Under the pieces are notes generated by a model. The model made no database searches, was not told the DNA's origin, and saw nothing but the letters and a program-made list of their open reading frames with translations. DNA of 64,000 nt, taken from NCBI GenBank assembly GCA_020351775.1, contig CP070666.1:3418658-3482657 (forward strand). Reading direction: 5' to 3'. Every line of letters begins with the position of its first letter. The first letter of the stretch is position 1. Made by a program: the position numbers and the translations under genes. Source of the stretch: Gemmatimonadota bacterium (lineage in GTDB: Bacteria > Gemmatimonadota > Gemmatimonadetes > Gemmatimonadales > GWC2-71-9). Positions 10,051-56,352 of the stretch are shown here, in pieces.

Positions 10051-10376
10051 AACAGATTCCTATTCCCGAGCGGATCCACCGCGGTGCGCGAGAGATTGTG
10101 ATCACTTGGGATAAGAATCACACCGGCACCTACCCCGCGCGCGAACTGCGGCTCAGCTGCCAATGCGCTGCCTGCGTTGACGAGTTGACGCGTCTACCTC
10201 TGCTCGACGCCGACACGATCCGCGCAGATATCAGTCCCGTCGCGATGTCGCTCGTCGGAAATTACGCGATCAAGATTGAATGGAGTGACGGGCATGACAC
10301 GGGCATCTATGCGTTCGACTTGCTGCTCGCGTTGTGTCCGTGTCCCAAGTGCGCCGAGAGCCATGATCATGAGTGA
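10047..10376 (+). CDS. DUF971 (gamma-butyrobetaine hydroxylase N-terminal-like) protein
   Basis: ATGA overlap with the upstream dehydratase. Motifs ITWDKNHTGTYPARELRLSCQCAAC and IKIEWSDGHDTGIY are typical of DUF971. Confidence 0.75.
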   Translation: MKQIPIPERIHRGAREIVITWDKNHTGTYPARELRLSCQCAACVDELTRLPLLDADTIRADISPVAMSLVGNYAIKIEWSDGHDTGIYAFDLLLALCPCPKCAESHDHE

Positions 10377-10444
10377 ACGCGGCACACTGGCCGACCCTGT
10401 CATCATGGAGCGGCGCATCAAACACCTCCGAGGAGGCGACGAAC

Positions 10445-11110: not shown

Positions 11111-11353
11111 ATGTCTGTGCCGGAGGTGCACCCCACCGCACTCGCCGACCGATTCACTATCGAGCGCGTGGTGGGTCGCGGGGGTATGGCCACCGTCTAC
11201 CTGGCACGAGATGTCAAGCACAATCGGCGGGTCGCACTGAAGGTTCTGTGCCCTGAACTGGCCGCGTCACTCGGCATAGATCGCTTTCTCGGGGAAATCA
11301 ACGGCCGGGGCGCCCCGGTTTCAGCAGCCGGGGCGCCACCTGATGTGCATTAA
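11111..11353 (+). pseudogene. N-terminal stub of a Ser/Thr protein kinase (subdomains I-III only)
   Basis: RFTIERVVGRGGMATVYLARDVKHNRRVALKVL...RFLGEI, after which the sequence diverges into a GC palindrome and stops. No HRD or DFG motifs. Confidence 0.7.
11309..11337. terminator. GC-rich hairpin between convergent genes (candidate bidirectional terminator)
   Basis: The arms ggcgccccgg (11309-11318) and ccggggcgcc (11328-11337) are perfect reverse complements with a 9-nt loop. It lies 13 nt past the S9 peptidase stop. The minus-strand side is followed by a modest T-rich run. Confidence 0.45.
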
Positions 11354-14172: not shown

Positions 14173-14263
14173 CGTGAACCTCCAGCGATAGTTACGGTGA
14201 TGATCGCCGGAAGTTAGGGCAGGTCATGGTCGGGTGCAAACAGTCAGCGCGCTCAACCCGGCA

Positions 14264-14926
14264 TCACGGCTGCTCCTTGTAACCTCCTGCATAGGTCATC
14301 ACACACACAATGCCGTATCCCGAGTGCGGCCCGCACGCGACCCCGACCACCCGGAGCTCGGGATTCAGAATGTTCGCTCGGTGACTGCGTTCGGGGACAC
14401 CGTCGTCGACCAGCAGCTGTGTGACGACGTCCCGGGCCGTGTCATAGCCGTACGCGACGTTCTCAGCGATTGCCGCCTCCCAGTCACCATATCTGTCTAC
14501 CCGGTCCCACGGCTGGCTGCCATCTGAGCCCAGGTGGCCCGTTCGGCCTGTCCGCCCTTGGTCCGCAACGAGATCCCGCGCTCCTAGGGACATGCCTCTG
14601 GATACACCGACCGGCGGCAGTGGCACTGTTGCCTCAAGTAGGTGCACGGCCTCGTCGACGGCCGCGATTCCCTCTTCAGTCTCGCGCACTGAACTATCGG
14701 TCAACTGGTACAGCAAGCCGTCGAATCGCGGCTTGAGGTCCCGCAGGAATCTCGCATACCCGGCGGGATCGGATCGCACCCGGTTGTGCTCGCGTACGAT
14801 CCCCCGCTCCAACTCCGACAGGTACTCGAGTGAGTCGGCCTGTGCGAACCCAACGGCCGGGAGCAGGACCAGGGCCGGGATCAGAAGCAGGAAGGCAAAT
14901 AGCGCCAGTCGCTCAGCGCCAATCAC
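14264..14926 (-). CDS. CAP/SCP/PR-1-like secreted protein
   Basis: Signal peptide. Motifs EHNRVRSDP and GENVAYGY...HRANILNPELRVVGVAC are characteristic of bacterial SCP domains. Confidence 0.8.
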   Translation of the reverse strand: MIGAERLALFAFLLLIPALVLLPAVGFAQADSLEYLSELERGIVREHNRVRSDPAGYARFLRDLKPRFDGLLYQLTDSSVRETEEGIAAVDEAVHLLEATVPLPPVGVSRGMSLGARDLVADQGRTGRTGHLGSDGSQPWDRVDRYGDWEAAIAENVAYGYDTARDVVTQLLVDDGVPERSHRANILNPELRVVGVACGPHSGYGIVCVMTYAGGYKEQP

Positions 14927-15192
14927 TGCACTTCAGACTCCACCGACTTCCAGTTCCACCACTTGAGCAGTTCGGGATCGTGGGCCGCGTGGCTCGCGAA
15001 GTAAACCGCGCAGCGAAACACGTAGAGAACACAGCGGTCTACCTGTGTTCCTCGCAGGATGCAGAGTTTGTCATACATCGACTCGGGATCCTGACCCGCG
15101 AGGTCCGGGACGCGCTCGAAGCCCAGGTCCCTCAAGTCCAACGCTATGCTCGGGCCGACCCCAGGGATCGACTCAAGATCGTGTCGTTGCAT
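14923..15192 (-). CDS. helix-hairpin-helix domain protein (Cdd1 / pathogenicity-locus-like)
   Basis: 89 aa. LESIPGVGPSIALDLRDLGF is an HhH motif. Overlaps the downstream CAP gene by 4 nt. Confidence 0.55.
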   Translation of the reverse strand: MQRHDLESIPGVGPSIALDLRDLGFERVPDLAGQDPESMYDKLCILRGTQVDRCVLYVFRCAVYFASHAAHDPELLKWWNWKSVESEVQ

Positions 15193-23567: not shown

Positions 23568-24380
23568 ATGAGAGATATGATCCGATCCAACAGTGACGAA
23601 CAGATGCCCCGCGTGGCCCTCTTCGTGACGTGTATGGTCGACACGTTGTATCCCGAAGTGGGTCTAGCTGCGGTCGACTTGCTCGAGCGTCACGGTGCCG
23701 AGGTAGTCTTCCCCGAGGAACAGACCTGTTGTGGTCAGCCCGCGTTCAATGCCGGCTACCGCGTCGAGGCCCGCAGAATGGCGGTTCATTTCCTCGATGT
23801 GTTTGCGCCGCTCGTGGAGAGCGGCGACGTAGATGCAATAGTGGCACCGAGCGGCAGCTGTGTCGCGATGGTCAAGCGCTTCTATGATGTGCTGTTCGAA
23901 GGGCCGAACTGCATCAACGACCAGCCACGTGTCGCCCGCACACGTGAGGTGACATACGAGCTGACACAGTACCTCGTAGATGTACTCGGTGTCGACGACA
24001 CTGCGGCGCAGTACAACGGCACACTCACGTATCACCCGTGCTGTCACTTGCTACGCGAGCTAGGGATCGACAAGCAGCCGCGCCGTCTGCTCAACGCCAT
24101 AACGGGCGCCGATCTCGTAGAACTGCCCGCCGCAACCGAGTGCTGTGGCTTCGGCGGACTGTTTGCGCTCAAGAACGCGGAGATCAGCACCGCCATGGGC
24201 CAGCGCAAGCTCGACAACATCGACCAAACCGGCGCGCACATCGTTGCGGTGAATGATGTCAGTTGCATGACACACATCAACGGGTTGCTCAAACGCGCCG
24301 GGCACCCCTGCCGGGCCGCGCACGTCGCGCAGCTGTTGCGCCCCGCGGAGGCGGGTGAGCCGGGGGCGCGGAGGACATGA
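23568..24380 (+). CDS. lutA: lactate utilization protein A (Fe-S oxidoreductase, CCG-domain)
   Basis: VALFVTCMVD...EQTCCGQP and a second CCG-type repeat ATECCGFGG. Confidence 0.85.
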   Translation: MRDMIRSNSDEQMPRVALFVTCMVDTLYPEVGLAAVDLLERHGAEVVFPEEQTCCGQPAFNAGYRVEARRMAVHFLDVFAPLVESGDVDAIVAPSGSCVAMVKRFYDVLFEGPNCINDQPRVARTREVTYELTQYLVDVLGVDDTAAQYNGTLTYHPCCHLLRELGIDKQPRRLLNAITGADLVELPAATECCGFGGLFALKNAEISTAMGQRKLDNIDQTGAHIVAVNDVSCMTHINGLLKRAGHPCRAAHVAQLLRPAEAGEPGARRT

Positions 24381-24486
24381 ACGTGCAACGCGCGTACACG
24401 GCTTCCCGCCATTCCGGCGTCGCGGTATCCCGTAGCCCTTCCAGGGGAGACCTATCCGCTCCCTGCTCCCTGCTTCCCATCAGCCG

Positions 24487-25926
24487 ATGACCGTCGACCC
24501 GTCGGCTAACTTCCGGACCAGGGTCGAGCAGGCCCTTGGCGATGACAACCTGCGCACGGCGTTGGACCGGGCGACCTCCCGCTTGAGGGGGAAGCGCACC
24601 ACAGCAGTGGCGGCGATCGATCTCGAGCGGCTACGCGATGAGGCCCGGGCGATCAGAGAACACTCGATCCGGCGACTGCCCGAGATGCTGGAGCAGCTGG
24701 AGCGCAACTTGATCGCCAACGGGTGCCAGGTGCACTGGGCCGAGACTGGAACCGAGGCGACGGATATCATCAACGCAATCGCGCGCCAGCACGGAGTACG
24801 TCGGGCAGTCAAATCGAAGTCGATGACCACCGAGGAGATCCGTCTGAACGAAGCGTTGGGACAGGAGGGTGTCGCAGTCGTCGAGACCGACTTGGGGGAG
24901 TACATCATCCAACTCGCCGACGAGCCGCCGAGCCACATCACGGCGCCGGTCCTTCACAAGCGTGCCGAGGACATCGCTGAGTTGTTCCAGCGCGAGCTGG
25001 GAATGCACCCTACGACGGACCCGACAGAGATCTGCGCCGCTGCGCGCCGGCAGTTGCGCGGCGAGTTTCTCGCTGCTGAGCTGGGTATAAGTGGCTGCAA
25101 CTTCGCCATTGCCGAGACCGGAACCATCTGCATAGTCACCAATGAGGGTAACGGCCGGATGGTCACGAGCATGGCACCGGTCTATGTGGCCCTGCTGGGA
25201 ATCGAAAAGATAGTGCCACGTGTCGAGGACGCGATTCTGTTGTGGCAGGCTGTGGCGCGCAGTGCTACCGGGCAAGAGACGACTGTGTACTTCTCCATGA
25301 GCAGCGGACCCCGAGGTCCCGGACAGGTCGACGGCCCCAGAGAGATGCATGTCGTATTGCTCGACAACGGGCGGACCCGGATATTGGAGCGGGGATACGC
25401 GGACGCGCTTCTGTGCGTGCGCTGTGGGGCCTGCCTCAATTCTTGCCCGATATACCGTGAGATCGGCGGTCACGCCTACGGTGAAACGGCCTACAGTGGG
25501 CCGATCGGAGCCGTGGTCACACCGCTGCTCGCCGACAACCCTGCCACGTTCAGGGAGCTGCCGTATGCCAGTTCGCTGTGTGGCGTCTGTCGTGAAGTCT
25601 GCCCCGTCAAGATCGATCTACCGCGGTTGTTGCTCGACCTGCGGCACAACCTGACTCAGCTTAAAGCGTCGCCGAGATACGAGCGAACTGCCGTGCGAGC
25701 CTTCGCTCGTGCCGCTGAGAGACCGCGAACCTACCAGCGCCTGTCACGAATCGTACGGTGGTTCATGCGGCTGCTGCCCCAGAATCAGGATGGAGATGTA
25801 TCGAAATTACCGCCCCCGTTAAGCGCCTGGACACGGAGTCGAGTGTTCCCCAAGCCCGCGACACCAGGCTTTCGTGAACTATGGCGCGCGCGAGGTACGC
25901 AAGATACCACCTCGGGGGATGGATGA
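24487..25926 (+). CDS. lutB: lactate utilization protein B (4Fe-4S ferredoxin-type)
   Basis: LUD domain plus CVRCGACLNSCPIY and CGVCREVCPV clusters. Confidence 0.9.
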   Translation: MTVDPSANFRTRVEQALGDDNLRTALDRATSRLRGKRTTAVAAIDLERLRDEARAIREHSIRRLPEMLEQLERNLIANGCQVHWAETGTEATDIINAIARQHGVRRAVKSKSMTTEEIRLNEALGQEGVAVVETDLGEYIIQLADEPPSHITAPVLHKRAEDIAELFQRELGMHPTTDPTEICAAARRQLRGEFLAAELGISGCNFAIAETGTICIVTNEGNGRMVTSMAPVYVALLGIEKIVPRVEDAILLWQAVARSATGQETTVYFSMSSGPRGPGQVDGPREMHVVLLDNGRTRILERGYADALLCVRCGACLNSCPIYREIGGHAYGETAYSGPIGAVVTPLLADNPATFRELPYASSLCGVCREVCPVKIDLPRLLLDLRHNLTQLKASPRYERTAVRAFARAAERPRTYQRLSRIVRWFMRLLPQNQDGDVSKLPPPLSAWTRSRVFPKPATPGFRELWRARGTQDTTSGDG

Positions 25927-26660
25927 GCGCACGACCGGCCATGGCGCGGGACCGCATACTCGAGCGGCTCCGAAGTCTGCTGAGAGAGAAACGGCCGCCG
26001 TTTCGTGATCCCATCGCTCACGACCTGCCGGCCCCACCAATGACAGTGTACCCACCGTCCGGACGGCGGTCTCTGGTGGAGACTTTCGGAGCTAAGCTCA
26101 CCGAGCTCTCCGGGAGTTGCGAACTGGTCCGCAGCGAGACTGACGTCGCCGAGCGGATTGCCCAGAAGATATGCGAGTGGGTGCCCACCGGAGGGCCGGA
26201 GCGAACCGAGGTATTGAGTTGGGCACCTGGTGAGCTGCACGTGGCGAGGCTGGAGCAGACACTGGCAGAACTGGACGTCTCGCTGTTCGTTCCGGACGAT
26301 ATGAACGATCAACGGGTCAGAGACCACGCGGCTTCGCTTGCAGTGGGTATCACGGGCGTTGAGGCAGCCTTTGCAAACACCGGATCCATTGCCTTGCTTC
26401 CGGCACCTGGCAGGAGTCGGGCTGCTAGTCTGTTGCCGCTGCACCACCTGGTGCTGATTCCATTGAGCAGGTTGTATCCAACGTTCGAGGACTGGCTATT
26501 GAAGCTCAGGAAAAGGGGACGTCTTGAGGCAATGGTCCGCCGCAGCGGCCAGATCGCATTCATCACAGGTCCGAGCAAATCGGCTGACATCGAGCTCAAC
26601 CTCACACTCGGCGTTCATGGCCCCAAGGTGGTGCATGCGGTAGTATTCGACGACGAGTGA
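25923..26660 (+). CDS. lutC: lactate utilization protein C (LUD domain)
   Basis: ATGA overlap with the lutB stop. GITGVEAAFANTGSI...LPLHHLVLI is typical of the LutC/YkgG family. The frame is open from 25881. Confidence 0.8.
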   Translation: MSARPAMARDRILERLRSLLREKRPPFRDPIAHDLPAPPMTVYPPSGRRSLVETFGAKLTELSGSCELVRSETDVAERIAQKICEWVPTGGPERTEVLSWAPGELHVARLEQTLAELDVSLFVPDDMNDQRVRDHAASLAVGITGVEAAFANTGSIALLPAPGRSRAASLLPLHHLVLIPLSRLYPTFEDWLLKLRKRGRLEAMVRRSGQIAFITGPSKSADIELNLTLGVHGPKVVHAVVFDDE

Positions 26661-26907
26661 AGCCAACTATCACTACCAAGATCCCGTCCAAGTTGCTGCA
26701 CTCCGTGTTATTCGATTCCCGTGCTGAGTCAGTACGACCTGAGAGACCGGATATTGAAGTAGACAGCTCGTAGCCCGAATTGGCACTCCACCTCCAATAC
26801 CGACCAGGAGCTAGACAGGTAAGACCTTGCTTTTTCGGGCTATGGCGGTAGCATGGCCCACAGCCAACTCCCTTACTTCAACATGCCATGATGGGGCGAA
26901 CCGCGAA

Positions 26908-28620
26908 ATGAGCCTCACAGTCCAAGCCCTCGTTGCGGTTGCCCCCATCCTACTCGCGGCCGTTCTGTTGGTCGGTCTGCGCATCCCCGCCAAGTGGGCC
27001 ATGCCGGCGGTATACGCGACGGCGGTGGTCCTGGCATGGGCCGTGTGGCGGGTCGATGCCCGCCACATCGGTGCGTCGACCGTGCAGGGGCTGTTCATAA
27101 CGTTCGACATACTGGCGATCATCTTCGGGGCAATTCTGTTGCTGAAGACGCTGGAGCACTCCGGAGGGGTGGCAGCCATTCGCCGGAGCTTTCACGGCAT
27201 CAGCGACGACCGCCGGGTGCAAGTCGTGATAATCGCCTGGCTGTTCGGGTCGTTTATCGAAGGTGCTGCGGGATTCGGCACGCCAGCGGCGGTGGCAGCT
27301 CCACTGATGGTGGCACTGGGCTTTCCTGTCACCGCTGCGGTGATGATCGGCATGATGATTCAGAGCACCGCGGTCACGTTCGGCGCCGTGGGCACACCGA
27401 TTCTCATCGGCGTCTGGGACGGCTTGGCGAGTCCGGAGCTGACAGCACGATTGACCGCGGCTGGGGTGTCGTACGACCACTATGTCCGCACCATTGCAGC
27501 CTACGCCGTATGCCTGCACGGACTGACCGGTACCCTGATGCCAACGTTGATGGTAATGATGCTGACCCGATTCTTCGGCCGACGGAAATCGTGGACCGAA
27601 GGACTGACGATTCTGCCATTCGCGATCTTCGGCGGCCTGGCGTTCACCGTGCCCTATACTCTCACAGGGGTGCTACTCGGTCCAGAGTTCCCAACGCTCT
27701 TGGGCGCAGCGGTCGGGCTGGCGGTGGTGACGTACGCAGCCCGCCGCGGCTTCCTGGTACCCCCCGACACATGGGACTTTCCCCAGCCGGACAGCTGGCC
27801 CGCCGATTGGCGACCCGGAACGGCCTCGGTCAACGAGACAGCCACGGCGCCATCGATCCAGCCGGCGTTAGCCTGGGCACCGTACGGGATAGTAGCGGTC
27901 CTGCTCGTTCTAACCCGGCTACCACAGCTGCCGCTGGGCGACTGGGCGCGAGCGCTCGAGATAAGCTGGCCGTGGATACTTGCGACCGATATCGGTGCAA
28001 GCACGACTCCGCTCTACCTCCCTGCCACCATGCTGATCATCGCCGTCGCCGCTACCTGGTTGCTGCATCGCATGAGCGGGCGTCAGATCGTCGCGGCCAT
28101 CGGAGACTCGAGCCGGGTTCTGCTGGGCGCGGGGTTCGTGCTGCTGTTCACCGTACCTATGGTGCGCGTCTACATAAACTCGGGCGTGAACTCGTTTGCC
28201 CTAGCCGGCGCCGACACCCTTCCCTCCATGCCCATTGCCATGGCGACCTGGGTGGCGGAGAATGTGGGCAGGATCTGGCCCCTGGTGGCGCCGTCCATTG
28301 GCGCCCTCGGCGCTTTCATAGCCGGCAGCAACACCGTCAGCAATCTGATGTTCAGCCTGTTCCAACACGGTGTCGCCGTGGAGTTGGCCATCAGCGGGGC
28401 CATGGTCGTGGCGCTGCAGGCAGTAGGGGCAGCCGCCGGTAACATGATCGCGATTCACAACGTCGTGGCGGCGTCGGCCACAGTCGGCCTCTTGGGCCAA
28501 GAGGGTTCGACTCTGCGCAAGACTATTCTACCCACTCTGTACTACTTGGCAGTGGTGGGCTGCCTCGGCCTGCTGGCCATCTACGTGATCGGGTTGCCCG
28601 ACCTGTTGGCAAACGGCTAG
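26908..28620 (+). CDS. lctP: L-lactate permease (LctP family)
   Basis: Polytopic protein. FITFDILAIIFGAILLLKTLEHSGG, FIEGAAGFGTPAAV and AAGNMIAIHNVVAA are LctP hallmarks. The frame is open from 26827. Confidence 0.9.
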   Translation: MSLTVQALVAVAPILLAAVLLVGLRIPAKWAMPAVYATAVVLAWAVWRVDARHIGASTVQGLFITFDILAIIFGAILLLKTLEHSGGVAAIRRSFHGISDDRRVQVVIIAWLFGSFIEGAAGFGTPAAVAAPLMVALGFPVTAAVMIGMMIQSTAVTFGAVGTPILIGVWDGLASPELTARLTAAGVSYDHYVRTIAAYAVCLHGLTGTLMPTLMVMMLTRFFGRRKSWTEGLTILPFAIFGGLAFTVPYTLTGVLLGPEFPTLLGAAVGLAVVTYAARRGFLVPPDTWDFPQPDSWPADWRPGTASVNETATAPSIQPALAWAPYGIVAVLLVLTRLPQLPLGDWARALEISWPWILATDIGASTTPLYLPATMLIIAVAATWLLHRMSGRQIVAAIGDSSRVLLGAGFVLLFTVPMVRVYINSGVNSFALAGADTLPSMPIAMATWVAENVGRIWPLVAPSIGALGAFIAGSNTVSNLMFSLFQHGVAVELAISGAMVVALQAVGAAAGNMIAIHNVVAASATVGLLGQEGSTLRKTILPTLYYLAVVGCLGLLAIYVIGLPDLLANG

Positions 28621-28984: not shown

Positions 28985-29066
28985 GCGACCGTGGCGGAAT
29001 TGGCAGACGCGCAGGATTTAGGATCCTGTGGGGAAACCCGTGGGGGTTCGAGTCCCCCCGGTCGCA
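28985..29066 (+). tRNA. tRNA-Leu, anticodon TAG, long variable arm
   Basis: Acceptor stem gcgaccg/cggtcgc. Anticodon stem cagga/tcctg with loop ttTAGga. Variable arm tggggaaacccgt. T-arm ggggg-ttcgagt-ccccc. No encoded CCA. Confidence 0.9.
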
Positions 29067-36254: not shown

Positions 36255-36610
36255 TCACATCGAACAGAATTCCGCGGTCGGACACCAAGAGATCATGGCC
36301 GACAGAGTGCGCCATCCCCGGCCCGGTTCTGAGCCACGAGGAACATCGCGCAGTTCCTCGTAGTGGCCCAGGCCGACGCGATCACCGAAGCTCTCGGTGA
36401 TAATCCCGAAGCAGTCACTGTGACGACGGATATTGGCCGATAGAACAGCCGCCAGCGCCACTCGATCATGCGTTGCTTGCTGATCTCCGGAGCGTTCCAG
36501 TAAACTTCGAGTTGCAGTTGATCTGATATCATCAATCTCGGTGGATCGTCCAGTTCTCCAAGCTGCCCGAAGAAGAACAAGAAGCCATGAGCCCTGGCCC
36601 GGAAATCCAT
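36255..36610 (-). other. possible decayed ORF split over two reading frames in a lower-GC patch
   Basis: Frame B (from 36610) reads MDFR...LEVYWNAPEISKQRMIEWRW. Frame A (to 36255) reads ...DCFGIITESFGDRVGLGHYEEL...CSM with better GC3. No family recognised. Confidence 0.2.
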
Positions 36611-37276
36611 GAGACCACTGTCGTCCGTGACTGTAGCTCACCGCTCCACGGCGTGCCTCACGACCGTCAGTATCGAGTCACCGTTCCGATCCTGGGCGCG
36701 CTGAGCGCTGCTCTCGCCATGGTCACGGGTGGTTGCTCCGACCTGACCATGCCGGGCGACACCCTGCTGGGGACCGACGAGCTGCTGATCCTCGCGATGC
36801 AGGCCGAAGCGCCACAACCGTTATCCACCAGCTTCTGGGTCTACAATTCTCGACAGACGGTGCAACGCCTATCACACCCGGATGCCCAGCTGATTCCGTT
36901 TCTTGAGCTGACGTTCCCAGGTGGATGCTTGGCAAGTCTCAACGGCAACCCCTTAGCTGGCAACGATTCCGCACTGGTGACAGTAGATCCTTGGCACCGG
37001 CAGTACGGCTTCACGCTATCGCCACCGGGACTGTCGTTTAACGCAAGTAGTCCGCTGACGGCGAAGTTCTTCTTCGGGTTCTACGCCGATGCCAGCGTCG
37101 CGGACCAGTCAGGCAAGTACGTCAGTCAACGCGAGTATGCGGCGGCACTCGAGATCTGGCATGAGATCACGGTTGCGCAGTGGCAGACAGCGAAGGGCTC
37201 GGGACCGGCGGGCATCGATGCCGTCGCCGCGACGGTTGCCGCTACCGGAGATTACGTGCTCGCGGCCCCCCGATGA
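36587..37276 (+). CDS. hypothetical lipoprotein
   Basis: Lipobox-like LAMVTGGCS. 229 aa with no recognised domain. Its stop overlaps the trpE ATG (ATGA). Confidence 0.55.
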   Translation: MSPGPEIHETTVVRDCSSPLHGVPHDRQYRVTVPILGALSAALAMVTGGCSDLTMPGDTLLGTDELLILAMQAEAPQPLSTSFWVYNSRQTVQRLSHPDAQLIPFLELTFPGGCLASLNGNPLAGNDSALVTVDPWHRQYGFTLSPPGLSFNASSPLTAKFFFGFYADASVADQSGKYVSQREYAAALEIWHEITVAQWQTAKGSGPAGIDAVAATVAATGDYVLAAPR

Positions 37277-38866: not shown

Positions 38867-40513
38867 ATGCTCTCGAAGGGATCGGACTTGAGGACCTTCA
38901 AGCTGCGCAGCACAACCGGCAATCAAGCAATCGACCTGACCCCAGGAGCGGTTGTGGTCGTCGGTCGCGCGGTGACCAGCGACCTCCCCATCTACGATCC
39001 GACGGTCTCACGCCACCACGCCGAGCTTGCGCTCACCGACGCCGGTGTACATGTGACTGATCTCGGCTCCAGTAACGGAACGTTTGTCAACGGGACGCCG
39101 ATCGACAAGGCGACCGCGGTCAACGGGGATGTGGTCACTTTCGGGCGGGTCGCGTTCAAGGTGGTCGAAGTGACGCCGCCGGCTCAGATGCCCGCCCCAG
39201 ACCTGGCGGCGGTTGCGCCCCCGCCCCCGGAAGCCACCATCGTTCGCCAAGTGGCGGTTCCTGAAGCCGGCGAGATCGAAGCCAAGGTCGTCGCTCGCGC
39301 TGGTAGCGGCTCTCAACTCAAACTCGAGGGCACGTCTGAGGAGGAGCGCCAAGCCAAGAAGCTCACACTCCTATTGGACATCTCACAGGCGCTGTCACGT
39401 CATCAGGACGTCGACAAGCTGCTCAAGAAGGTGGTCGACATCACGTTTCAGGTGATGGAAGTGGATCGGGTGTCGATCTTGATGGTGGAGGGCCAGGCCG
39501 AGGAACTCATCCCGCGGATTTCCAGAAGCCGGTTGGGCGGGGAGGGTGGCAGCCGACACGTGCCGCAGTCAATTGCCCGCCGTGCCGTCTCGGAGCGGCT
39601 GGCCATACTGACTGATAACGCGGCCGCCGATGACCGCTTCCGTGGCAAGTCGATACTGGTTCAGAGCGTGCGCAGCGCCATGTGCGCGCCCCTGTTGGGA
39701 AGTCGCGATAGCGGCGGCGAAGGCAGGGTGCTGGGCTTGATCTACGTTGACAGCCAGACGGCAACGGAGGCCTTCAGCGACGAAGACCTCGAATTCCTGA
39801 TTGCGTTCTCGGGTATTGCCGCAATCGCAATCGAGAACAGTCGGCTATTGGACCGGATCCAGCGTGAGGCCGTGGTGCTCTCCAATTTTCAGCGGTACTT
39901 CGCTCCCAACATCGCGCAGCAGATCGCGGGTCAAGAGGGGGCGGTTCAACTGGGAGGTACCAAGCGGCCGGTCGTGGTCTTCTTCAGCGACATTCGGGGA
40001 TTCACGCCCATGTCTGAGACGATGGGACCGGATGACATCGCGACTCTGCTGAACGAGTACTTCACCGAGATGGTGGAGATCGTGTTTGAGCATGGCGGCA
40101 CGCTCGACAAGTTCATGGGTGATGCGATCATGGCTTTATGGGGCGCGCCCATTTCACACGACGATGATGCGGACCGGGCCATGGCCGCGGCCATCGATAT
40201 GCAGAGTGTGTTGGCAAAGCTGAACGTGAAGTGGGCGGCGGAAGGTCGTCAGCGTGTGGAGATCGGGATCGGGATCGACTACTACGAGGTGTTCGCGGGC
40301 AACATCGGCAGCGATCGCCGTTTGGAGTACACCGTGATAGGAGATGCAGTGAACACTGCGTCTCGCCTCTGTTCGCAGGCGGGTCCCGGTGAGATCATTC
40401 TATCGCGCCGGTTCTATGAGGAGCTGACCAAGCGACCCGCTGTCGAAGAATTGGAAGCACTGGAACTCAAGGGCAAGGCAGAAAAGGTCCCAGTCTATCG
40501 AGTGAAGCGATAG
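38867..40513 (+). CDS. FHA - GAF - class III adenylate/guanylate cyclase
   Basis: FHA domain (VVVGRA...SRHHAEL...DLGSSNGTFVNG). GAF region. Cyclase catalytic domain (VVVFFSDIRGFTPMSE...DKFMGDAIMALWGAP...GDAVNTASRL). Confidence 0.88.
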   Translation: MLSKGSDLRTFKLRSTTGNQAIDLTPGAVVVVGRAVTSDLPIYDPTVSRHHAELALTDAGVHVTDLGSSNGTFVNGTPIDKATAVNGDVVTFGRVAFKVVEVTPPAQMPAPDLAAVAPPPPEATIVRQVAVPEAGEIEAKVVARAGSGSQLKLEGTSEEERQAKKLTLLLDISQALSRHQDVDKLLKKVVDITFQVMEVDRVSILMVEGQAEELIPRISRSRLGGEGGSRHVPQSIARRAVSERLAILTDNAAADDRFRGKSILVQSVRSAMCAPLLGSRDSGGEGRVLGLIYVDSQTATEAFSDEDLEFLIAFSGIAAIAIENSRLLDRIQREAVVLSNFQRYFAPNIAQQIAGQEGAVQLGGTKRPVVVFFSDIRGFTPMSETMGPDDIATLLNEYFTEMVEIVFEHGGTLDKFMGDAIMALWGAPISHDDDADRAMAAAIDMQSVLAKLNVKWAAEGRQRVEIGIGIDYYEVFAGNIGSDRRLEYTVIGDAVNTASRLCSQAGPGEIILSRRFYEELTKRPAVEELEALELKGKAEKVPVYRVKR

Positions 40514-41067
40514 GGCAGCCCTGCCGCATCCAGCAGAGATATCACCAGACGAATCGGCAATCCCATCACCCCGAAGAAGTCACCCTCAATGCGGCGCACC
40601 AACACCGCGCCGCGACCCTGGACAGCGTAGCTACCCGCCTTATCGAGCGGCTCGCCCGTCGCAACGTACTCCTTGATGAACTCCTCATCAAACGATCTGA
40701 ACCACACTTTGGTCACATCGCACAGTTCCCGCGTCTCGCCACCCCGTGCCAGCGCCACTGCGGTAACGACTCGGTGCTGCCGCCCAGACAACATCCCCAG
40801 CATCCGGGCAGCTTCAACGTCCGAGCTGGGTTTTCCCAAGATGATGCCGTCGATCACCACCAGGGTGTCCGCCGCCAGAACGGGCACACCTGAGTGACGC
40901 TGCGCTACTTTGACCGCCTTTGCCCGCGCCAGCCGCACTGCGAGCGCCTCGGGTAGCTCTCCCAGCTCGGGGCGTTCATCTATCTCGGCCGGATCGACTT
41001 CATACTCGATGCCCAGCATATCCAACAGCTGCTGGCGTCGAGGTGACGCGGAGGCGAGGACTATCAT
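40495..41067 (-). CDS. maf: Maf-like nucleoside triphosphate pyrophosphatase
   Basis: MIVLASASPRRQQLL...AADTLV...AGSYAVQG. Its 3' end overlaps the convergent cyclase gene by 19 nt. Confidence 0.9.
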   Translation of the reverse strand: MIVLASASPRRQQLLDMLGIEYEVDPAEIDERPELGELPEALAVRLARAKAVKVAQRHSGVPVLAADTLVVIDGIILGKPSSDVEAARMLGMLSGRQHRVVTAVALARGGETRELCDVTKVWFRSFDEEFIKEYVATGEPLDKAGSYAVQGRGAVLVRRIEGDFFGVMGLPIRLVISLLDAAGLPYRFTR

Positions 41068-41535: not shown

Positions 41536-42020
41536 TCATTCCACCGTCACGCATTTGGCAAGGTTGCGCGGCCGGTCCATGTCACAGCCACGTCGCACTG
41601 CTACGTTGTAGGCAAACAGTTGCAGTGGCAGCACGCTCAGCACGGAGGTCAGGGGATGCATTGCGTCCGGTATCTTGAACACATGGTCAGTCAAACGGGC
41701 CATCTGGTCATCACCCTCCGTCACCACGGCGAGGACCCGTCCGCCTCGTGCCTCAACTTGCTCGAGATTGGATAAGATCTTGGAATGGACCCCGTCCTGG
41801 CGCGCTACGAAGACGACAGGCATCATTTCGTCGACCTAGGCAAGGGGACCATGCTTCATCTCCGCAGCCGGATACCCTTCGGCATGGATGTGGTAGATCT
41901 CTTTCAGCTTGAGTGGGCAAGACCTGCCGAGTCGTAGCCCCGGTGCTTGAGACGCTGCAAGCCTTCGAGTACCACCGACACGGCTTCACGATATCCTACG
42001 TATCCGACCACGCCACACAA
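41536..42020 (-). pseudogene. glmS: glutamine-fructose-6-phosphate aminotransferase remnant (internal ~1.3 kb missing, frameshift, in-frame TAG)
   Basis: The TTG-Cys start ([34 protein letters not shown]) lies 9 nt after a GGAGA immediately downstream of the glmM stop. Near 41913 the homology jumps to another frame: [39 protein letters not shown]...RPRNLAKCVTVE (GlmS C-terminus). Confidence 0.8.
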
Positions 42021-42034
42021 GATGGCATGTCTCC

Positions 42035-43384
42035 TCAGCTACTCATATACTCCTTCGCGGCACTCACCAACGTGTCTGCAGCTTCGCTGGTCGGTGCCTC
42101 GGCGATCAACCGCACTATCGGCTCGGTTCCGGACGGTCGAACGTGGAGCCAGGAATCGCCCCAAGCAAGGCGGAGTCCATCTTGCCGATCGACTGTGGCA
42201 TCCGAGAATCGCTGCTGCAGCGACTGATAGATCCCCTCCATGGATCCCTGTCGCCCTACCTTCGCCTTCACTATCGCGTATCGTGGTGCTGCCCGCACCA
42301 ACTCGGCCACTGAACGTCCGGTCCGCGCCATCAGGCTCAGCACCAACCCGGCCGCAACCGGCGCATCGCGTCCCAGATGCAAGTCGGGTAGCATCACTCC
42401 CCCATTCCCTTCACCACCGATCACAGCACCGACTTGTTGCATCAATGCTGCGACGTTGGCCTCCCCTACCGGTGCACGCCGAACCACCGCACCGTAATCC
42501 CGCGCAGCGTCTTCGACCACCAGCGACGTGGATAGGTTGGTTACGACCACACCGGTACGTCGCGCTAGGACCTCGCGGACTGCAAACGCCAGCGTGTAAT
42601 CCTCGCCGATCGGTGTCCCGGTCTCATCCACGACAGCGAGCCGGTCTACATCTGGATCGACGGCGATCCCCACATCTGCCTCTGCGCGCCTCACCAACTC
42701 TCCAAGTCCCGACAGGTTCTCAGGCACCGGTTCAGGCAGCCGCGGAAACATGCCGTCAGGTTCCAAATCCATCCCCATCGTGCGACAAGCCAGCCGGTCG
42801 AGTAGCTGGGGCATGATATTCCCGCCGGCACCCCGCACGCAATCCAATGCCACGGTGAAGCGCCGTCGCCGGATTGCCGTAACGTCGATCAGATCCAACC
42901 CCATGACCGCGTCAAGATGACGTTCGACGGCAGCCTCGTCCTCCACCGCATCGCCAGGAAAGGCCGCAGTTTCAGGGGCAGGATTAGCCGCTAACTCGAA
43001 CAGCCGGCCGGCCGTCTTTCGGCTCAAGAAGAGACCATCCGGACCCACGAACTTCAAGGCATTCCACTCTACTGGATTGTGGCTTGCCGTGATCACGATC
43101 CCACCCGCCGCACCATGATGCTCGACTGCGAGTTGTGCGGTCGGGGTTGGTATCAGACCGCAGTCGATGACCGAGACACCGACCGACTGCAAGGCCGATC
43201 CCACGACGTCCGCGAACATCGGGCCTGATGCCCGGGCATCCCGGGCCAGAACAGCCGTCCGGCCACCCGATTCACGGATCAAGGCTCCGAACGCCGTGGC
43301 ATACCGCTCCGCGACTTCAGGCGTGAGGCTCGTGCCCACAATCCCCCGCACACCCGACACACTGACAATTAGGGCATCACTCAT
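42035..43384 (-). CDS. glmM: phosphoglucosamine mutase
   Basis: VSVSGVRG, active-site [14 protein letters not shown], and DPDVDR metal loop. The frame is open from 43399. Confidence 0.93.
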
Positions 43385-50194: not shown

Positions 50195-51169
50195 GTGTTG
50201 CTAGCAATCGCGCAGTTGCTGCTTGGCCTGGCCCTGCTGCTCGGCGGGGGACACTATCTGGTGCGGGGTGCAACGAGAATTGCCCTGCTTGCTCGAGTGT
50301 CAACTGCTATAGTCGGTCTGACTGTGGTTGCTATGGGTACGAGCCTCCCGGAGCTGGCGGTCAGCGTGGGAGCGGCTGCGCGGGGCAGTACGGACCTGGC
50401 CTACGGAAACATCATCGGGTCAACCATCTTCAACGTCGGCATGATACTCGGCGTTGCGGCTCTGGTAGCTCCCATGGTTGTCCAGCGTCAAACGCTCCGC
50501 CTTGAGTACCCTTTCATGTTCGTAGTTGCCTGTATGGTGCTTCTCCTGTGCCGCGATTCGATGATTGACCGGCTGGAAGGTGCATTTCTTGTTGCTGCCC
50601 TCGCCTTGTTCACAGTCTACGTTGTTCACTTGGCCCAGCGAGAAATCGATGCGGATGAGGCTGTGGCGTTGGAACGCGAGGTCCAAAAGGCCGCCCACAT
50701 CAAGAATGGCATCGGCCGCGCTTGGGGCATCAACGCGCTCCTGGCCACACTGGGCATCGCGGCCTTGATCGGGGGGGCGGATCAGGTGGTTGCTGGTGCG
50801 GTGAAGATCGCGGTCTTCTGGGGTGTCGATGAGCGGATGATCGGGCTCACAGTCGTCGCGATGGGTACGAGTCTTCCGGAACTGGCTACCAGCGCAGTGG
50901 CCGCCAAGGAGGGGGAGCACGAAATCGCGTTGGCCAACGTGATCGGCTCCAATCTCTTCAATCTGCTGGGAGTATTGGGTGCCACGGCGGCCATCTTCCC
51001 CGTCCCAATCAACGAGGCAGCCAAGAATATCGACAACTGGGTGATGCTGGGATTCTGCGCGGCGATGTTCCCTCTGATGTGGTTCGGACGTCGGGTAGGT
51101 CGCTGGGAAGGCCTGGTATTGCTCGCCGGGTTCGCCGTGTACCTGGGATATCTGTTGCTAACCCGCTGA
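50195..51169 (+). CDS. Ca2+/Na+ antiporter (CaCA/YrbG family)
   Basis: Two alpha-repeat signatures (GTSLPELAVSV... and GTSLPELATSA...GSNLFN) in a 10-TM protein. Confidence 0.85.
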   Translation: MLLAIAQLLLGLALLLGGGHYLVRGATRIALLARVSTAIVGLTVVAMGTSLPELAVSVGAAARGSTDLAYGNIIGSTIFNVGMILGVAALVAPMVVQRQTLRLEYPFMFVVACMVLLLCRDSMIDRLEGAFLVAALALFTVYVVHLAQREIDADEAVALEREVQKAAHIKNGIGRAWGINALLATLGIAALIGGADQVVAGAVKIAVFWGVDERMIGLTVVAMGTSLPELATSAVAAKEGEHEIALANVIGSNLFNLLGVLGATAAIFPVPINEAAKNIDNWVMLGFCAAMFPLMWFGRRVGRWEGLVLLAGFAVYLGYLLLTR

Positions 51170-51595
51170 CTCGAGTGAGACGAGGCGGGCCCGGGGAGGA
51201 AGCCCCGGCTCCAGTTCCAGAATGCCAACCGTGGGTAACTCATCGCCTTGCACCGACCCGGCGAAGCCAGGATTCGTGACCGCTACGATCTCGTCAACCA
51301 ATTCGAGCAGCGGTCGATCTGTATGTCCGTACACTATGATCTCCGCATCGGGATAGACTGCGTGCAGCCGCGTCAGGGTGGGCAAGCCAAGTTGATCGAC
51401 GGCCAATCGCCCTCCGGTGGCTCCTCGAAGCCCGGCTTCGTCGGTGATACCCATCTCGGTGCTGAGCAGCCGCCACCCATGGCTGCTTACTATGAGCCGG
51501 ACGGGTATGTCATGCTCGACCAGGACCTGCAGCAGACGCACTGCGTAAGGCGCACCAGATGCACCAGTAACCGCGGGAACCCAGAGTGCCGTCAC
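51158..51595 (-). pseudogene. chimeric ORF: UbiX-type flavin prenyltransferase N-terminus joined in frame to a YfcE/MJ0936-type metallophosphoesterase C-terminus
   Basis: GTG start after AGGAGAGG. ALWVPAVTGASGAPYAVRLLQVLVEHDIPVRLIVSS is the UbiX N-terminus (~60 aa). After ~51380-51420 the sequence reads LHAVYPDAEIIVYGHTDRPLLELVDEIVAVTNPGF...VGILELE (phosphoesterase C-terminus with degenerate GHTH and NPGS motifs). Confidence 0.65.
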
Positions 51596-51806
51596 TGACC
51601 TCTCCTGTTGGGAGTGGGTGATTTGATGGGATGCCGCGGTGGACCGGGCGGCGGTGGACCCTTCTGGCGGTCGGGCGCGGGGCGGGGGACCGGTCGCTTC
51701 ACCCGAGGTGCCGGGCGGTCCTGGCGTCTCACTTTCCGGGGGCCGCCACCTGCCGACCCGGCTCCGCATCGATCCGTGCAGTCCCACGCCCGCCTCGCCG
51801 CTTCCC

Positions 51807-52938
51807 TCACCACGTTCGATCTCCCAGTGCCGCGAGAAACAAGACGACGGATATGATCCCGTTCATCGTGAAGAACGCTGCATCGAGCCTGCTCAGATCG
51901 TGGGGGCGTACGAGGCTGTGCTCCCAAGCCAGCAGGACCGCAGCAACCGCTACGCCGGCATAATACGCCGTGCCATGGCTCGCCCCTACACCAAACACCA
52001 CGAGGCCCAGCAGCGTCACCGCATGCAGCACTTTTCCGATTAGAATACTACGCGACGGACCCAGCAGCGCGACTGCACTGTGCAAGCCATGTTCCCGATC
52101 AAACCGCTCGTCCTGGAGTGCATAGAAGATATCGAACCCACCAACCCAGGTCAGGACGGCAGTGACGGCTTTGGTCATGGTGACCGGCTTGCGCCGCAGA
52201 AATCCAGCGAACACGTATTCGTCGATGCTGGGTGGCAGCCGGGCGGAGGCCGAATACATCGACGCAGGATCTCCGCCTAGCACCATGACAACAGGCATTC
52301 TATCACCGCGCGCTGCCATGGCACGCCAGTGAGCGGCACCGACTTTGTGCCTTTGCCAATGCATCGCCAGCAACTTTCGCGTGCACCTGAACACGGTACG
52401 TGCCCACGTTGCGGACCCCCGACTGCGGATCGCGAGTCACCACCTGAGGCAGAGTCAAATAGGGACCGCCGTCTCCTGGCCAACACGTATTGATGGGCAG
52501 GCTCATCAGATCGATGTCAGCTCCCTGTTTGATCACCCCCTGACATGGTGCGCCGCGCGACACCGAACGCGGCGGGTACTTCGCGATCTCAGCGATTCTG
52601 GGCAGCAGTTCCAGCTTCTCGCGCTGGCCCTCCGGGACCCTCAACTTGATCAGAGCTTCAATTCGTGCACCGACATCGTCGAGTCGCTCCACGCCAAGTG
52701 CAAGAGACATTCGGTTGACGGACCCGAAGGCATTGATCACCACCGGGATGTCACTCGTGACTCCGCTGTCCAGAACGGGGCGCTCGCACAGTAGCGGCGG
52801 TCCGCCGCCGGCGATCTTCACGCACCGGTCGGCTATCTCGGTGATTTCGTGCACCACCGACACCGGGTGGCTGATTCGAAGCAGCCGGTCCCGGCGGGCT
52901 ACTTCGGTAATGAAACCATGAAGATTATCTATGGTCAC
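51807..52938 (-). pseudogene. UbiD-family decarboxylase N-terminal half (1-nt frameshift) fused to the C-terminal third of a UbiA-family prenyltransferase
   Basis: GTG start after GGAGAGG. UbiD motifs GPPLLCE, NAFGS, PINTCWPGDGGPYLTLPQVVTRDP and NVGTYRVQV. The frame switches near 52378 to KLLAMHWQRHKVGAAHW...MPVVMVLGGDP...DEYVFAGFLR. After ~52160 it reads LTWVGGFDIFYALQDERFDREHGLHS plus terminal TM helices (UbiA). Confidence 0.7.
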
Positions 52939-53671
52939 CGACCTCTCCCCAATACAGTGATGCGACACCGGACGTCAATCGTTCGACACCTACATGGGTA
53001 AAGCCACCCTCCTGCATCAACGCGGCGAACCCCTCGTTGTCCGGAAACCGCTCCACAGAATCTGGCAGGTAGCTGTAAGCCGTCATATGTTTGGACACCG
53101 TACGACCTATCACTGGAAGGATGGTGCGAAAGTAGAAGTAGAAAAGGTAGAGCGGCCGCAGCGGCCAGGTCAGGGGTATCGAGAACTCCAGCACAACGAG
53201 GCGGCCTCCGGGTTTGAGTACTCGCGCCATCTCCGTTAGACCGGCATTCACGTCCGCTAGGTTTCTTATTCCAAAAGCGACCGTACAACCATCGAAGGAT
53301 CCGTTAGCGAACGGGAGACTCAGTGCGTCAGCAGCCACTGGATAGACACTTGAGGCCTTTCGCCGACCGTGTTGCAGCATCGGCACGACGAAATCCGCAC
53401 CCACGACGCTACCGCCAAAGCCGGGACGCCTGGCCAATTCCGCTGCCAGATCGAGTGTTCCGGCACAAAGATCCAAGTACGCTCCCTGCGGCGCTGCCTC
53501 CCAACCCAACTTGCGGACGGCGCTGCGGCGCCACAGCCAGTCCATGTTGAGGCTGAGAGCGTGGTTGAGCAGGTCGTAGCGCGGTGCAATGGCTGTGAAC
53601 ATCTCCCGCACGTACGATCGCTTCCCATGGTCCGATGGGGGGCCCCTCAGGGGCGAACCAGCCCTAGGCAT
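52925..53671 (-). CDS. ubiE: demethylmenaquinone/ubiquinone C-methyltransferase
   Basis: VREMFTAIAPRYDLLNHALSL..D..WR, SAM motif LDLCAGT, FGIRN, and VLEFS. Appears full length. Confidence 0.9.
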   Translation of the reverse strand: MPRAGSPLRGPPSDHGKRSYVREMFTAIAPRYDLLNHALSLNMDWLWRRSAVRKLGWEAAPQGAYLDLCAGTLDLAAELARRPGFGGSVVGADFVVPMLQHGRRKASSVYPVAADALSLPFANGSFDGCTVAFGIRNLADVNAGLTEMARVLKPGGRLVVLEFSIPLTWPLRPLYLFYFYFRTILPVIGRTVSKHMTAYSYLPDSVERFPDNEGFAALMQEGGFTHVGVERLTSGVASLYWGEVGDHR

Positions 53672-54452: not shown

Positions 54453-54980
54453 ATGCGAGACCGAACTGACAAGAATAGTGCAGCGGTCGACGACGACTCG
54501 GTTCTAGACCGGGCGCTTGCATCGCTAGGACGTTTTTCACCGACGCCTGGATTCGAAGATCGTGTAATGGCACGAGTCGGCACTCCTGCGCCTATGTGGA
54601 TTCAGAGACTCAAGTGCCGGGGACGCTTTCTGGCCGAGACCGGTCGCTTGTGGTGGCTGCTGGGCGGAGTCGCCGGCACTCTTGCCCTTTCACTGTCCGG
54701 GTTCGTCACCCTAGTCGTGCTGAACGGGGCGGGCGTCCGGGAATCTTTGAACAGCCTCTTAACCGCAGTGGGGCTGCCAGCTTGGCGGGCCCTGTTGGGG
54801 GTTACGGTGCAAGTTACGCAGGACGCCTGTTCCCTGATCAACTCCGTCGCCTTGCCAGGCGCCATCTGGGCAGCCATCGCAGTCGGCGGCTCTCTCACGT
54901 TGCTGTTCAATACCTGGATGATCTGCCGACTCACGCAGCCTGCCAAGGCCAGAACGGTGAAGTTGAATGCACCGCACTAA
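54453..54980 (+). CDS. multi-TM membrane protein, candidate anti-sigma factor (no zf-HC2 motif)
   Basis: 175 aa immediately downstream of the ECF sigma gene. Cytoplasmic N-terminus followed by 3-4 hydrophobic segments. Confidence 0.45.
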   Translation: MRDRTDKNSAAVDDDSVLDRALASLGRFSPTPGFEDRVMARVGTPAPMWIQRLKCRGRFLAETGRLWWLLGGVAGTLALSLSGFVTLVVLNGAGVRESLNSLLTAVGLPAWRALLGVTVQVTQDACSLINSVALPGAIWAAIAVGGSLTLLFNTWMICRLTQPAKARTVKLNAPH

Positions 54981-56352
54981 GATCGCGCAGGCAGTGATCG
55001 GAATCATCGTGGGATCGATGCTGCCACTCGCGGCGGTGGCGGCGCAGTCGAATCTCCGACAGACAGATCACGTTGTTGCACACACTTCGGTCCTGTTGCA
55101 GGGCGAGGCATCACTTGAGCTACAGCTTATCAGCGGTGCGACGATACGAGTGACATTTTCCAGGGGTTCCGTCACCGTGGACCAATCCGGGCCGGCTGCG
55201 AGTAGGCGCGAGGTTGTAGCGCAATACCAAGTGGGCGGGCAACTCGAGACCGCCTGGCGTAAACTGGTCGACAAAGCAAGTAGCGCCGACCCCGCGGAGA
55301 TGTTGGCGGCGCTGCAGAACTGGCGAGTGGAGGGATTGAGCAGTGCAGAGTCGGGGGCATTGCAGAAAGCCACCGCACCATTCACGGAGTTGACGCCGGC
55401 CCCCGTGCCGCCTCCCGTGGCAGAGGCAAGCCCGACGGCAAGGCGCGCCTTCGGAGCGGCCCGGCCGGAGAGCGACCTCGCGTCGGTGGCCCGCGCCCTC
55501 GAAGGGCTCGAGGGTCTGGCGGCGCTCCGAGCGCTCGAGACTTTGAAGGCCTTCGAGATGCCGGAAGTAGCAGAGGACCTCTTACAGACCGATCGGTTGG
55601 AGCAACTGAGTGCCCTGGAGGCACTTCAGAGCCTGGAGCAGCTCAAGCTCGATCAGCCGCGTCCGGCCGCCACCCTGGGATTCGGCACCATCGCGCTGCG
55701 AGTAGGCAGTGACATGCTCGCTCTGATCGCCTGTTTCATTTCCTTGGGAGCTCTCGGTTTCGGCTTGGCCTTCTTTGCACCCCGCCCGCTCGAGGTGGTA
55801 GCGGACACCGTCCACCAATCATTCTGGCGTTCGTTCGTCATCGGCCTCTTGGCACAGCCTCTCGTCGTGCCGGCCTTTGGGATGCTGCTCTTGGGACTGG
55901 CGCTCACGGTCATCGGAATCGTACTGATCCCCTTCGCAATCGTCGGCTTCTTGGTGGCAGCTGTACTGGGAATCCTCGGGGGTTACATCGCTGTAGCCCG
56001 ATCAGTCGGAGAAGCCTACCTGCGGCGGCGGATGTCTCTGGGTCATGCGGTGGGAGGGTGGCTGGCGTACCGATATGTGGTCTACGGACTGGCAGGCCTC
56101 ATGGCCGTATGGGTGCCGGCAGCGCTGTTGGGATGGGTACCGCTAGCGGGTACCGTCGCAACCACTAGCGCAATCATCATCACGTGGATGCTAGCCACAG
56201 CTGGATTCGGTGCTGCGATTCTCTCACGAGCCGGGATCCGCGGGACTTTCGGTCGGCGTTTCGACCACGCCCTTACGGACGAACACCTGTACCACACGCC
56301 GCGGGCGACACCTGTCGTGCGAACCCGTCACCGAGGCAGCCGCACTCGATGA
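54967..56352 (+). CDS. hypothetical membrane protein with an extracytoplasmic domain, Leu/Glu-periodic linker and polytopic C-terminus
   Basis: 461 aa with a signal-anchor. The ALEGLEGLAALRALETLKAFE...LEQLSALEALQSLEQLKL segment precedes ~6 TM helices. Overlaps the upstream gene by 14 nt. Confidence 0.55.
   Translation: MHRTKIAQAVIGIIVGSMLPLAAVAAQSNLRQTDHVVAHTSVLLQGEASLELQLISGATIRVTFSRGSVTVDQSGPAASRREVVAQYQVGGQLETAWRKLVDKASSADPAEMLAALQNWRVEGLSSAESGALQKATAPFTELTPAPVPPPVAEASPTARRAFGAARPESDLASVARALEGLEGLAALRALETLKAFEMPEVAEDLLQTDRLEQLSALEALQSLEQLKLDQPRPAATLGFGTIALRVGSDMLALIACFISLGALGFGLAFFAPRPLEVVADTVHQSFWRSFVIGLLAQPLVVPAFGMLLLGLALTVIGIVLIPFAIVGFLVAAVLGILGGYIAVARSVGEAYLRRRMSLGHAVGGWLAYRYVVYGLAGLMAVWVPAALLGWVPLAGTVATTSAIIITWMLATAGFGAAILSRAGIRGTFGRRFDHALTDEHLYHTPRATPVVRTRHRGSRTR

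Follow-up and report, generated by a model that had tools for sequence, protein, structure and literature searches.

A probable glmS pseudogene between glmM and dtd in a Gemmatimonadota genome, and apparent recurrent loss of the gene in related lineages

The glmM-glmS-dtd-maf locus and its glmS remnant

The DNA studied here, hereafter the window, is a stretch of 64,000 nucleotides (nt) from contig CP070666.1 of a Gemmatimonadota bacterium (NCBI assembly GCA_020351775.1), and the subject of this work is the remnant of glmS that it carries between glmM and dtd. GlmS performs the committed step to uridine diphosphate N-acetylglucosamine (UDP-GlcNAc), a precursor of peptidoglycan and outer-membrane glycolipids, and is an antibiotic target. 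Among bacteria with a cell wall, it is commonly considered essential and almost universal. The genes are arranged in the order glmM, glmS relic, dtd and maf, all on the minus strand of the window, and those flanking the relic are full length (Table 1).

The glmM stop codon (TGA, 42035-42037) is separated by 14 nt from the glmS start, and the TTG start codon is directly followed by TGT, which encodes Cys1. Past codon 35, this first frame (frame A) reads HSS and then TGA (41904-41906), giving an open reading frame (ORF) of 38 amino acids (aa). The homology resumes in another frame (frame B), coding from 41913 to 41539, which ends with NLAKCVTVE ahead of the stop at 41536-41538; just before this stop, the translation terminates in RPRNLAKCVTVE. 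Frame B is itself interrupted by a TAG that replaces a Leu (column 509) whose conservation among 69 intact Gemmatimonadota GlmS is 97% or more. The whole relic measures 485 nt, and 160 of the 608 codons are left, in two frames. Breakpoint analysis against the closest intact orthologue (1,827 nt), carried by lineage L082 (related lineages are designated here by L numbers), indicates that 1,342 nt are gone, i.e. codons 36-482 plus one base. Since this amounts to 447 codons and 1 nt (a remainder of 1 after division by three), the frame is shifted. Microhomology at the junction does not exceed 1 nt.

These positions bear out the initial annotation, which had described a glmS reduced to a 485-nt remnant between glmM and dtd, with a GGAGA motif and a TTG-TGT start behind the glmM stop, a GlmS N-terminus giving way around 41913 to the C-terminus in another frame, and a TAG at a conserved Leu. 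Its estimate of about 440 absent codons was close; it did not give the strand. The two segments resemble GlmS far more than chance would allow: the N-terminal piece matches positions 1-36 of the 601 of NCBIfam NF001484 (E = 1.6e-13, 49.9 bits) and the C-terminal piece matches positions 478-601 (E = 2.1e-49, 168.5 bits). Furthermore, the latter gives one partial match to the Pfam SIS domain (positions 25-129 of 131, E = 3e-20). When seven intact Gemmatimonadota GlmS were searched against the window with tblastn, only two high-scoring segment pairs were obtained, covering residues 1-35 (57-66% identity) and 484-604 (53-70% identity with six of the seven queries); the seventh query, from L034, aligned across residues 462-607.

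As read from its sequence, this relic cannot encode the enzyme. Both profile scores lie under the cutoffs for a functional GlmS (381 bits for TIGR01135 and 418 bits for NF001484). No complete Ntn glutaminase domain follows Cys1, the profile being matched at positions 1-36 only, and no Pfam GATase match was obtained. In place of two SIS domains there is a single partial one, derived from the last subdomain and broken by the TAG, and no uninterrupted ORF of about 600 codons is present, both frames carrying the stops mentioned above. A split or trans-encoded GlmS was rejected, as was recoding or read-through of the relic, since 448 codons are absent from the window. A glmS ribozyme/riboswitch (Rfam RF00234) was also rejected: the Rfam scan of the window at gathering thresholds returned one tRNA only. 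Moreover, the TTG is not a degraded start. The intact glmS of L082, L083 and L085 have an identical GGAGA-spacer-TTG-TGT arrangement, and TTG is therefore the normal glmS start in this clade.

The neighbouring GlmM has all four PGM_PMM domains and is 100% identical to NCBI protein UCG85315.1, from a metagenome-assembled genome of a Gemmatimonadota bacterium. It is of the archaeal type, scoring 480.8 bits against TIGR03990 ('Arch_GlmM', cutoff 439) and 207.5 bits, below the cutoff, against the classical bacterial TIGR01455.

Table 1. Features of the glmS locus and of other genes or gene relics in the window
Feature	Position	Strand	Remarks
glmM (phosphoglucosamine mutase), intact, 449 aa from ATG	42035..43384	-	longest ORF begins at GTG 43399
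glmS translation start region, preserved	42018..42034	-	GGAGA 42030-42034, spacer, TTG 42018-42020
glmS 5' relic, codons 1-35	41916..42020	-	Cys1 and beginning of Ntn glutaminase domain
Deletion junction in glmS, frame-shifting	41913..41916	-	breakpoint analysis and alignments
glmS 3' relic, codons ~484-608	41536..41913	-	last SIS subdomain, C-terminal NLAK-VTVE tail, original stop
In-frame TAG for conserved Leu (GPIAL-ID motif)	41836..41838	-	column 509
dtd (D-aminoacyl-tRNA deacylase), intact, 145 aa	41064..41501	-	Pfam Tyr_Deacylase 1-144 of 144, E = 7.6e-57; TIGR00256
maf, intact, 190 aa, last gene of the conserved glmM-glmS-dtd-maf run	40495..41067	-	Pfam Maf, E = 1.6e-59
UbiE/MenG gene, looks intact	52925-53671	-	
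UbiD-family 'menaquinone biosynthesis decarboxylase' relic	52303-52968	-	TIGR03701 positions 2-173 of 433
UbiA/MqnP-like prenyltransferase relic	51816-52181	-	residues 190-311 of 313
UbiX relic, residues 1-62	51410-51595	-	within ORF 51158-51787
Metallophos_2 protein, last 75 residues, in-frame fusion to UbiX relic	51173-51397	-	
DUF5686 gene relic, ~125 N-terminal residues (~16-139)	36339-36709	-	frame shift at 36449

Intact and collapsed glmS in related lineages

A full glmS comes right after glmM in 79 of the 82 Gemmatimonadota loci with enough downstream DNA, taken from GTDB representatives, JGI metagenomes and contig look-ups, and dtd is usually the next gene. The close relatives were found by protein search and contig look-ups. 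Comparison of their glmM-glmS-dtd locus, which the initial annotation had proposed, disclosed an intact glmS in some of them and relics with other breakpoints in others. The closest ones are fully syntenic with the window (response regulator-HD, glmM, glmS, dtd, maf, FHA-GAF-cyclase, chorismate-binding enzyme and further genes), and the order glmM-glmS-dtd-maf is common to L081-L086 and to the sister group L167-L171. The gene is intact and encodes 608 aa in L082 (ENA), L083 (JGI 3300027917) and L085 (JGI 3300057030). It is called as 630 aa in L167, L168, L170 and L171, and the contig of L169 ends within it. In a metagenome scan with GlmM, which served as a baseline, all relatives among the matches listed were at most 68% identical.

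Some distant Gemmatimonadota depart from this arrangement. In L132, dtd lies 13 nt after glmM (around 7425-7440) with no glmS relic, and in L122 neither glmS nor dtd is found within 6 kb of glmM (6688-12688). Since both lack a glmS beside glmM, linkage of the two genes is not universal in the phylum, and glmS may sit elsewhere. In L135 (1900-3073), an insertion separates glmM from glmS and the first ~27 glmS codons occur twice, in different frames; this repeat may reflect a local duplication or an error of assembly.

The codons retained in the window have decayed. They include 87 columns that are at least 97% identical among the 69 intact genes, and 14 of these near-invariant columns are altered, stop included. 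The changes comprise E25K, Y26H, S490Y, Y491H, L509stop, P521R and S604C, the last of which sits in the catalytic C-terminal tail. For the intact genes, the same statistic computed by leave-one-out has a mean of 0.57 and a maximum of 4. Likewise, 19 residues of the relic are never seen in intact GlmS; intact genes average 1.5 such residues and have at most 9. Over the retained codons, the ratio of nonsynonymous to synonymous divergence (dN/dS) is roughly 0.10 between the window and L082 versus 0.03 between the intact genes of L082 and L085; intact glmS as a whole, at 0.03-0.065, is strongly constrained. Hence, the relic displays the features of a pseudogene, namely syntenic homology, disabling lesions (deletion, frame shift and TAG) and relaxed constraint.

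Three related lineages carry collapsed glmS of their own. In L081 (NCBI GCA_975963035.1), about nt 1-122 are kept and the gene resumes at codon 565, so 1,569 nt are lost; the relic (11365-11622) forms an in-frame ORF of 85 aa with Gly3Val in the catalytic CGIIG motif. This fusion is reported as a protein by gene callers. In L084 (JGI 3300027901), nt 1-43 are kept, the homology resumes near codon 522 and 1,519 nt are lost; this relic is frame-shifted and carries its own TAG. In L086 (JGI 3300041078), about nt 1-72 are kept and the gene resumes at codon 597, with 1,713 nt lost; the relic (~11190-11303) is in frame, forms an ORF of 37 aa and has a TCGA microhomology at its junction. The in-frame fusions of L081 and L086 are probably meaningless. 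Each relic, that of the window included, keeps sequence that another has lost, which points to four separate deletion events, none of them derived from another.

The JGI gene calls of L086 are short for GlmM (394 aa, 10001-11185) and Dtd (115 aa, 11453-11800), as they are for PurD (375 aa, 5071-6198) and the chorismate-binding enzyme (363 aa, 14071-15162). The full-length frames of the first two are intact, GlmM aligning by tblastn over residues 1-449 and Dtd forming a 145-aa ORF from 11363. The truncations of GlmM and Dtd are therefore start choices of the gene caller and not decay.

L081 and L084 are close to each other: their GlmM are 95.5% identical, with a synonymous divergence (dS) of ~0.07-0.12, and their flanking genes diverge by 2-4% in total and by 5-8% at third codon positions. 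About 5% of the bases shared by their two relics differ, mostly in a non-synonymous manner. Although the sample is small, this suggests that glmS had lost its function before the two lineages separated and was then eroded further in each of them.

A neighbour-joining tree built on a concatenation of three to seven flanking proteins (at most 2,870 columns, 500 bootstrap replicates) has the topology (L086,(L085,(window,(L082/L083,(L081,L084))))). The clade is supported at 100%, as is the position of L086 outside the remainder. The intact L082 is sister to the collapsed L081/L084 at 96-98% with five or seven flanking genes and at 83-84% in the two- and three-gene sets; support is weak in a tree built from GlmM only. 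A clade uniting all collapsed lineages was recovered in 0 of the 500 replicates. Since intact lineages interleave with collapsed ones and a deletion of 1.3-1.7 kb cannot revert, at least three losses of glmS appear to have occurred: one in L086, one in the lineage of the window and one in that of L081/L084.

Nature of the relic and other decay in the window

We consider that the glmS of the window is very probably a genuine, non-functional pseudogene of the deletion-type, unitary kind. The ancestral run would have been glmM, glmS with 608 codons, dtd and maf. Once the need for glmS had ceased in the window lineage, a single internal deletion of ~1,342 nt would have taken out the first SIS domain together with the larger part of the glutaminase domain and shifted the frame. 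What was left would then have drifted, acquiring the TAG in place of the conserved Leu as well as numerous changes at invariant positions. Since the cell still needs glmM and dtd on either side, only deletions internal to glmS would persist. At least two other related lineages would have lost the gene on their own, which suggests that the clade has a supply of glucosamine-6-phosphate (GlcN-6-P) independent of this glmS.

Several points weigh against this interpretation. The junction is known from the assembled sequence alone, and exact-protein look-ups in the contig index (GlmM with two start choices, Dtd and P0001) returned no second assembly. The dS between species is near saturation (0.6-2.0), which makes the dN/dS values rough. 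L009 (GTDB representative contig JBDGXD010000503) is 99.97% identical to L086, possibly stems from the same data set and counts with it as one lineage. Moreover, the window contains no second glmS by tblastn and no nagA, nagB or N-acetylglucosamine (GlcNAc) transporter, so that the compensating route is one that we infer. Finally, among the 120 matches listed in a search of 5.8 billion proteins, none at 72% identity or above is a GlmS of the type of the window, L081 or L086, a weak negative.

Two other explanations of the relic have to be weighed. The initial annotation had left room for an assembly that dropped ~1.3 kb from a full glmS, and such an artefact of assembly or consensus would be compatible with the source, a metagenome-assembled genome in a single contig of 5,510,074 bp for which the look-ups yielded no second assembly. 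We regard it as very unlikely, because a deletion from a working gene would have left the retained codons pristine, whereas the TAG and 13 more changes at near-invariant positions fall outside the range of the 69 intact genes. The same gene has also collapsed, with different junctions, in three other lineages, whose independent assemblies stem from different samples or records; the genes on both sides of the relic are full length, and further deletion relics in the window indicate that gene loss by deletion is a real trait of this genome. It is hardly more probable that the relic is kept for a purpose, either as a source of small proteins (38 aa, or 96 aa from the ATG at 41826) or as a spacer for dtd-maf expression. 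Both extremities of the gene do persist in all four relics, with 14-41 codons left at the 5' end and 13-125 at the 3' end, and two of the four are in-frame fusions (those of L081 and L086). However, retention of both ends is what survivorship predicts for a deletable gene between two needed ones, and two in-frame cases among four are near the one-in-three chance. What is retained varies from lineage to lineage and contains stops or radical replacements (Gly3Val, Gly6Arg and Tyr7Ser; the TAG of L084), L132 does without any relic, and the ~5% divergence between the L081 and L084 relics is comparable to that of flanking third positions, which suggests neutral drift.

Besides glmS, other genes of the window are reduced to relics. 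UbiD-, UbiA- and UbiX-like genes and a Metallophos_2 gene, all full length in L167 and L086, survive in the window as fragments next to a UbiE/MenG gene. In L081, the site expected for the UbiE-UbiD-UbiA-UbiX cluster is a 1.1-kb region without called genes (683-1789), in which a UbiX fragment and scrambled pieces of UbiE, in two frames and at 32-47% identity, are all that is left; this cluster has thus been lost in parallel in L081. The DUF5686 gene, ~680 aa in L167 and L086, is truncated in the window, L081 and L082, the last two keeping ~70-110 N-terminal residues, and this truncation probably predates the split of the three. Since the clade sheds several functions, a dependency scenario of the Black-Queen type is worth testing.

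Other content of the window includes two ORFs without significant Pfam match, one of 801 aa (4340-6745, plus strand) with a faint NCBIfam match far below cutoff and one of 461 aa (54967-56352, plus strand) with no NCBIfam match. A lactate-utilisation cluster (23568-28620, plus strand) encodes CCG-domain LutA-like, LutB-like and LutC-like LUD proteins; an L-lactate permease comes next. The sole Rfam match, the tRNA (28985-29066, plus strand), lies just upstream of trigger factor-clpP-clpX.

Supply of glucosamine-6-phosphate and comparison with known systems

In all lineages without glmS, glmM is intact, and its dN/dS of 0.10-0.13 equals that of the glmS-bearing lineages. Since glmM stays under purifying selection, GlcN-6-P would still be needed and available. 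Recurrent loss, constrained glmS in the sister lineages and constrained glmM together argue for a real property of the clade, with a supply of GlcN-6-P that does not depend on GlmS. No nagA, nagB, nagK or other sugar kinase gene, GlcNAc transporter, glmU or mur gene was detected by Pfam and NCBIfam among ~45 ORFs of the window, and no nagA, nagB, nagK or GlcNAc transporter was seen in the 10-kb flanks of the relatives. The collection of 5.8 billion proteins does contain the GlmM of the window genome and of L081. Among the matches listed, GlmS proteins at least 80% identical to that of L082 come from the L082/83, L085 and L167 lineages only. A recently relocated orthologous copy of glmS is thus unlikely.

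Two accounts of this supply, both of which the initial annotation had raised, may be put forward, each tentatively. A second glmS, either a paralogue or horizontally acquired, may have made the linked copy redundant, the latter being then differentially lost. Differential loss after duplication fits both the repeated losses and the strong constraint where the gene is kept, L132 and L122 indicate that glmS can sit away from glmM, and large genomes with two glmS exist. Set against this, no second glmS occurs in the window and none of the window, L081 or L086 type appeared among the listed matches at 72% identity or above. As a recently relocated copy is unlikely, this account is narrowed to a divergent gene, and a divergent second synthase elsewhere in the chromosome is a plausible but far from assured source. 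Alternatively, the cells may scavenge GlcNAc or glucosamine (GlcN) from chitin, peptidoglycan or necromass through a kinase or a phosphotransferase system and NagA, or, in a variant, use NagB or GlmD with ammonium, a possibility we hold with similar reserve. The parallel recurrence of the loss within the clade agrees with this, as does a constrained glmM, consistent with entry into the pathway beyond the GlmS step; the concomitant loss of late-step menaquinone genes suggests a drift to external supplies, and there are precedents in Escherichia coli glmS mutants and Tannerella forsythia. However, the nag genes and GlcNAc transporter that it calls for were found neither in the window nor in the flanks of the relatives, and obligate amino-sugar auxotrophy would be unusual for a genome of 5.5 Mb. 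Within this second account, uptake of GlcNAc or GlcN with NagA-type salvage might be the source, though we would not favour it, and an ammonia-dependent enzyme of NagB/GlmD type working in the synthetic direction is improbable.

A deletion-type pseudogene is in itself ordinary, and a lone one in one metagenome-assembled genome would be a curiosity or an artefact. The new element here is the recurrent independent loss of glmS, at least three times in a clade of genus or family level, with glmM retained. In a literature search, where 'GLMs' mostly matched generalized linear models, no account of a loss of glmS in Gemmatimonadota came up. It is conceivable, if still speculative, that a large-genome environmental clade has become independent of GlmS and repeatedly discards glmS and menaquinone genes, through dependence on neighbours or a non-canonical route to GlcN-6-P. 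If true, this would be a Black-Queen-type loss, in free-living bacteria, of a cell-wall precursor enzyme usually held to be essential. If a second synthase explains the loss, the case is an ordinary one. If salvage or another enzyme does, free-living sediment or soil bacteria would show an amino-sugar dependency, with a bearing on metabolic reconstructions and on cultivation media for poorly cultured Gemmatimonadota. In any case, automated pathway calls may score glmS as present from partial matches.

Compared with bacterial GlmS (TIGR01135 / NF001484; Pfam GATase_6/7 and two SIS domains), the relic shares the Cys1 motif CG(I/V)(I/V)GY, the syntenic position between glmM and dtd and the ...RPRNLAK-VTVE tail. 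It differs in having 160 of 608 codons, two frames, an internal stop and scores below the cutoffs. Deletion-type unitary pseudogenes occur in bacteria with a deletional bias, for example in the genome decay of Mycobacterium leprae or recent symbionts. Like these, the relic shows relaxed constraint and combines a kilobase-scale internal deletion with a frame shift and a nonsense codon, and several other genes of the window decay likewise. However, the genome concerned here measures 5.5 Mb and belongs to an uncultured environmental Gemmatimonadota that is not known to be host-restricted.

Regarding the supply of GlcN-6-P, GlcN or GlcNAc allows E. coli glmS mutants to grow, overexpression of nagB rescues them as well, and T. 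forsythia, which lacks glmS, lives on scavenged amino sugars and is auxotrophic for N-acetylmuramic acid. Here too, GlmS is lost at its normal locus while the downstream precursor steps are needed. However, T. forsythia also lacks glmM, glmU, murA and murB, whereas glmM is kept in the present lineages, in which salvage would be hypothetical. Several large-genome bacteria have two glmS genes, for instance rhizobia (nodM), Streptomyces and Burkholderia. Such redundancy would explain the repeated decay of one copy, but here, in contrast to these genomes, a second copy was found neither in the 64-kb window nor among the listed protein matches.

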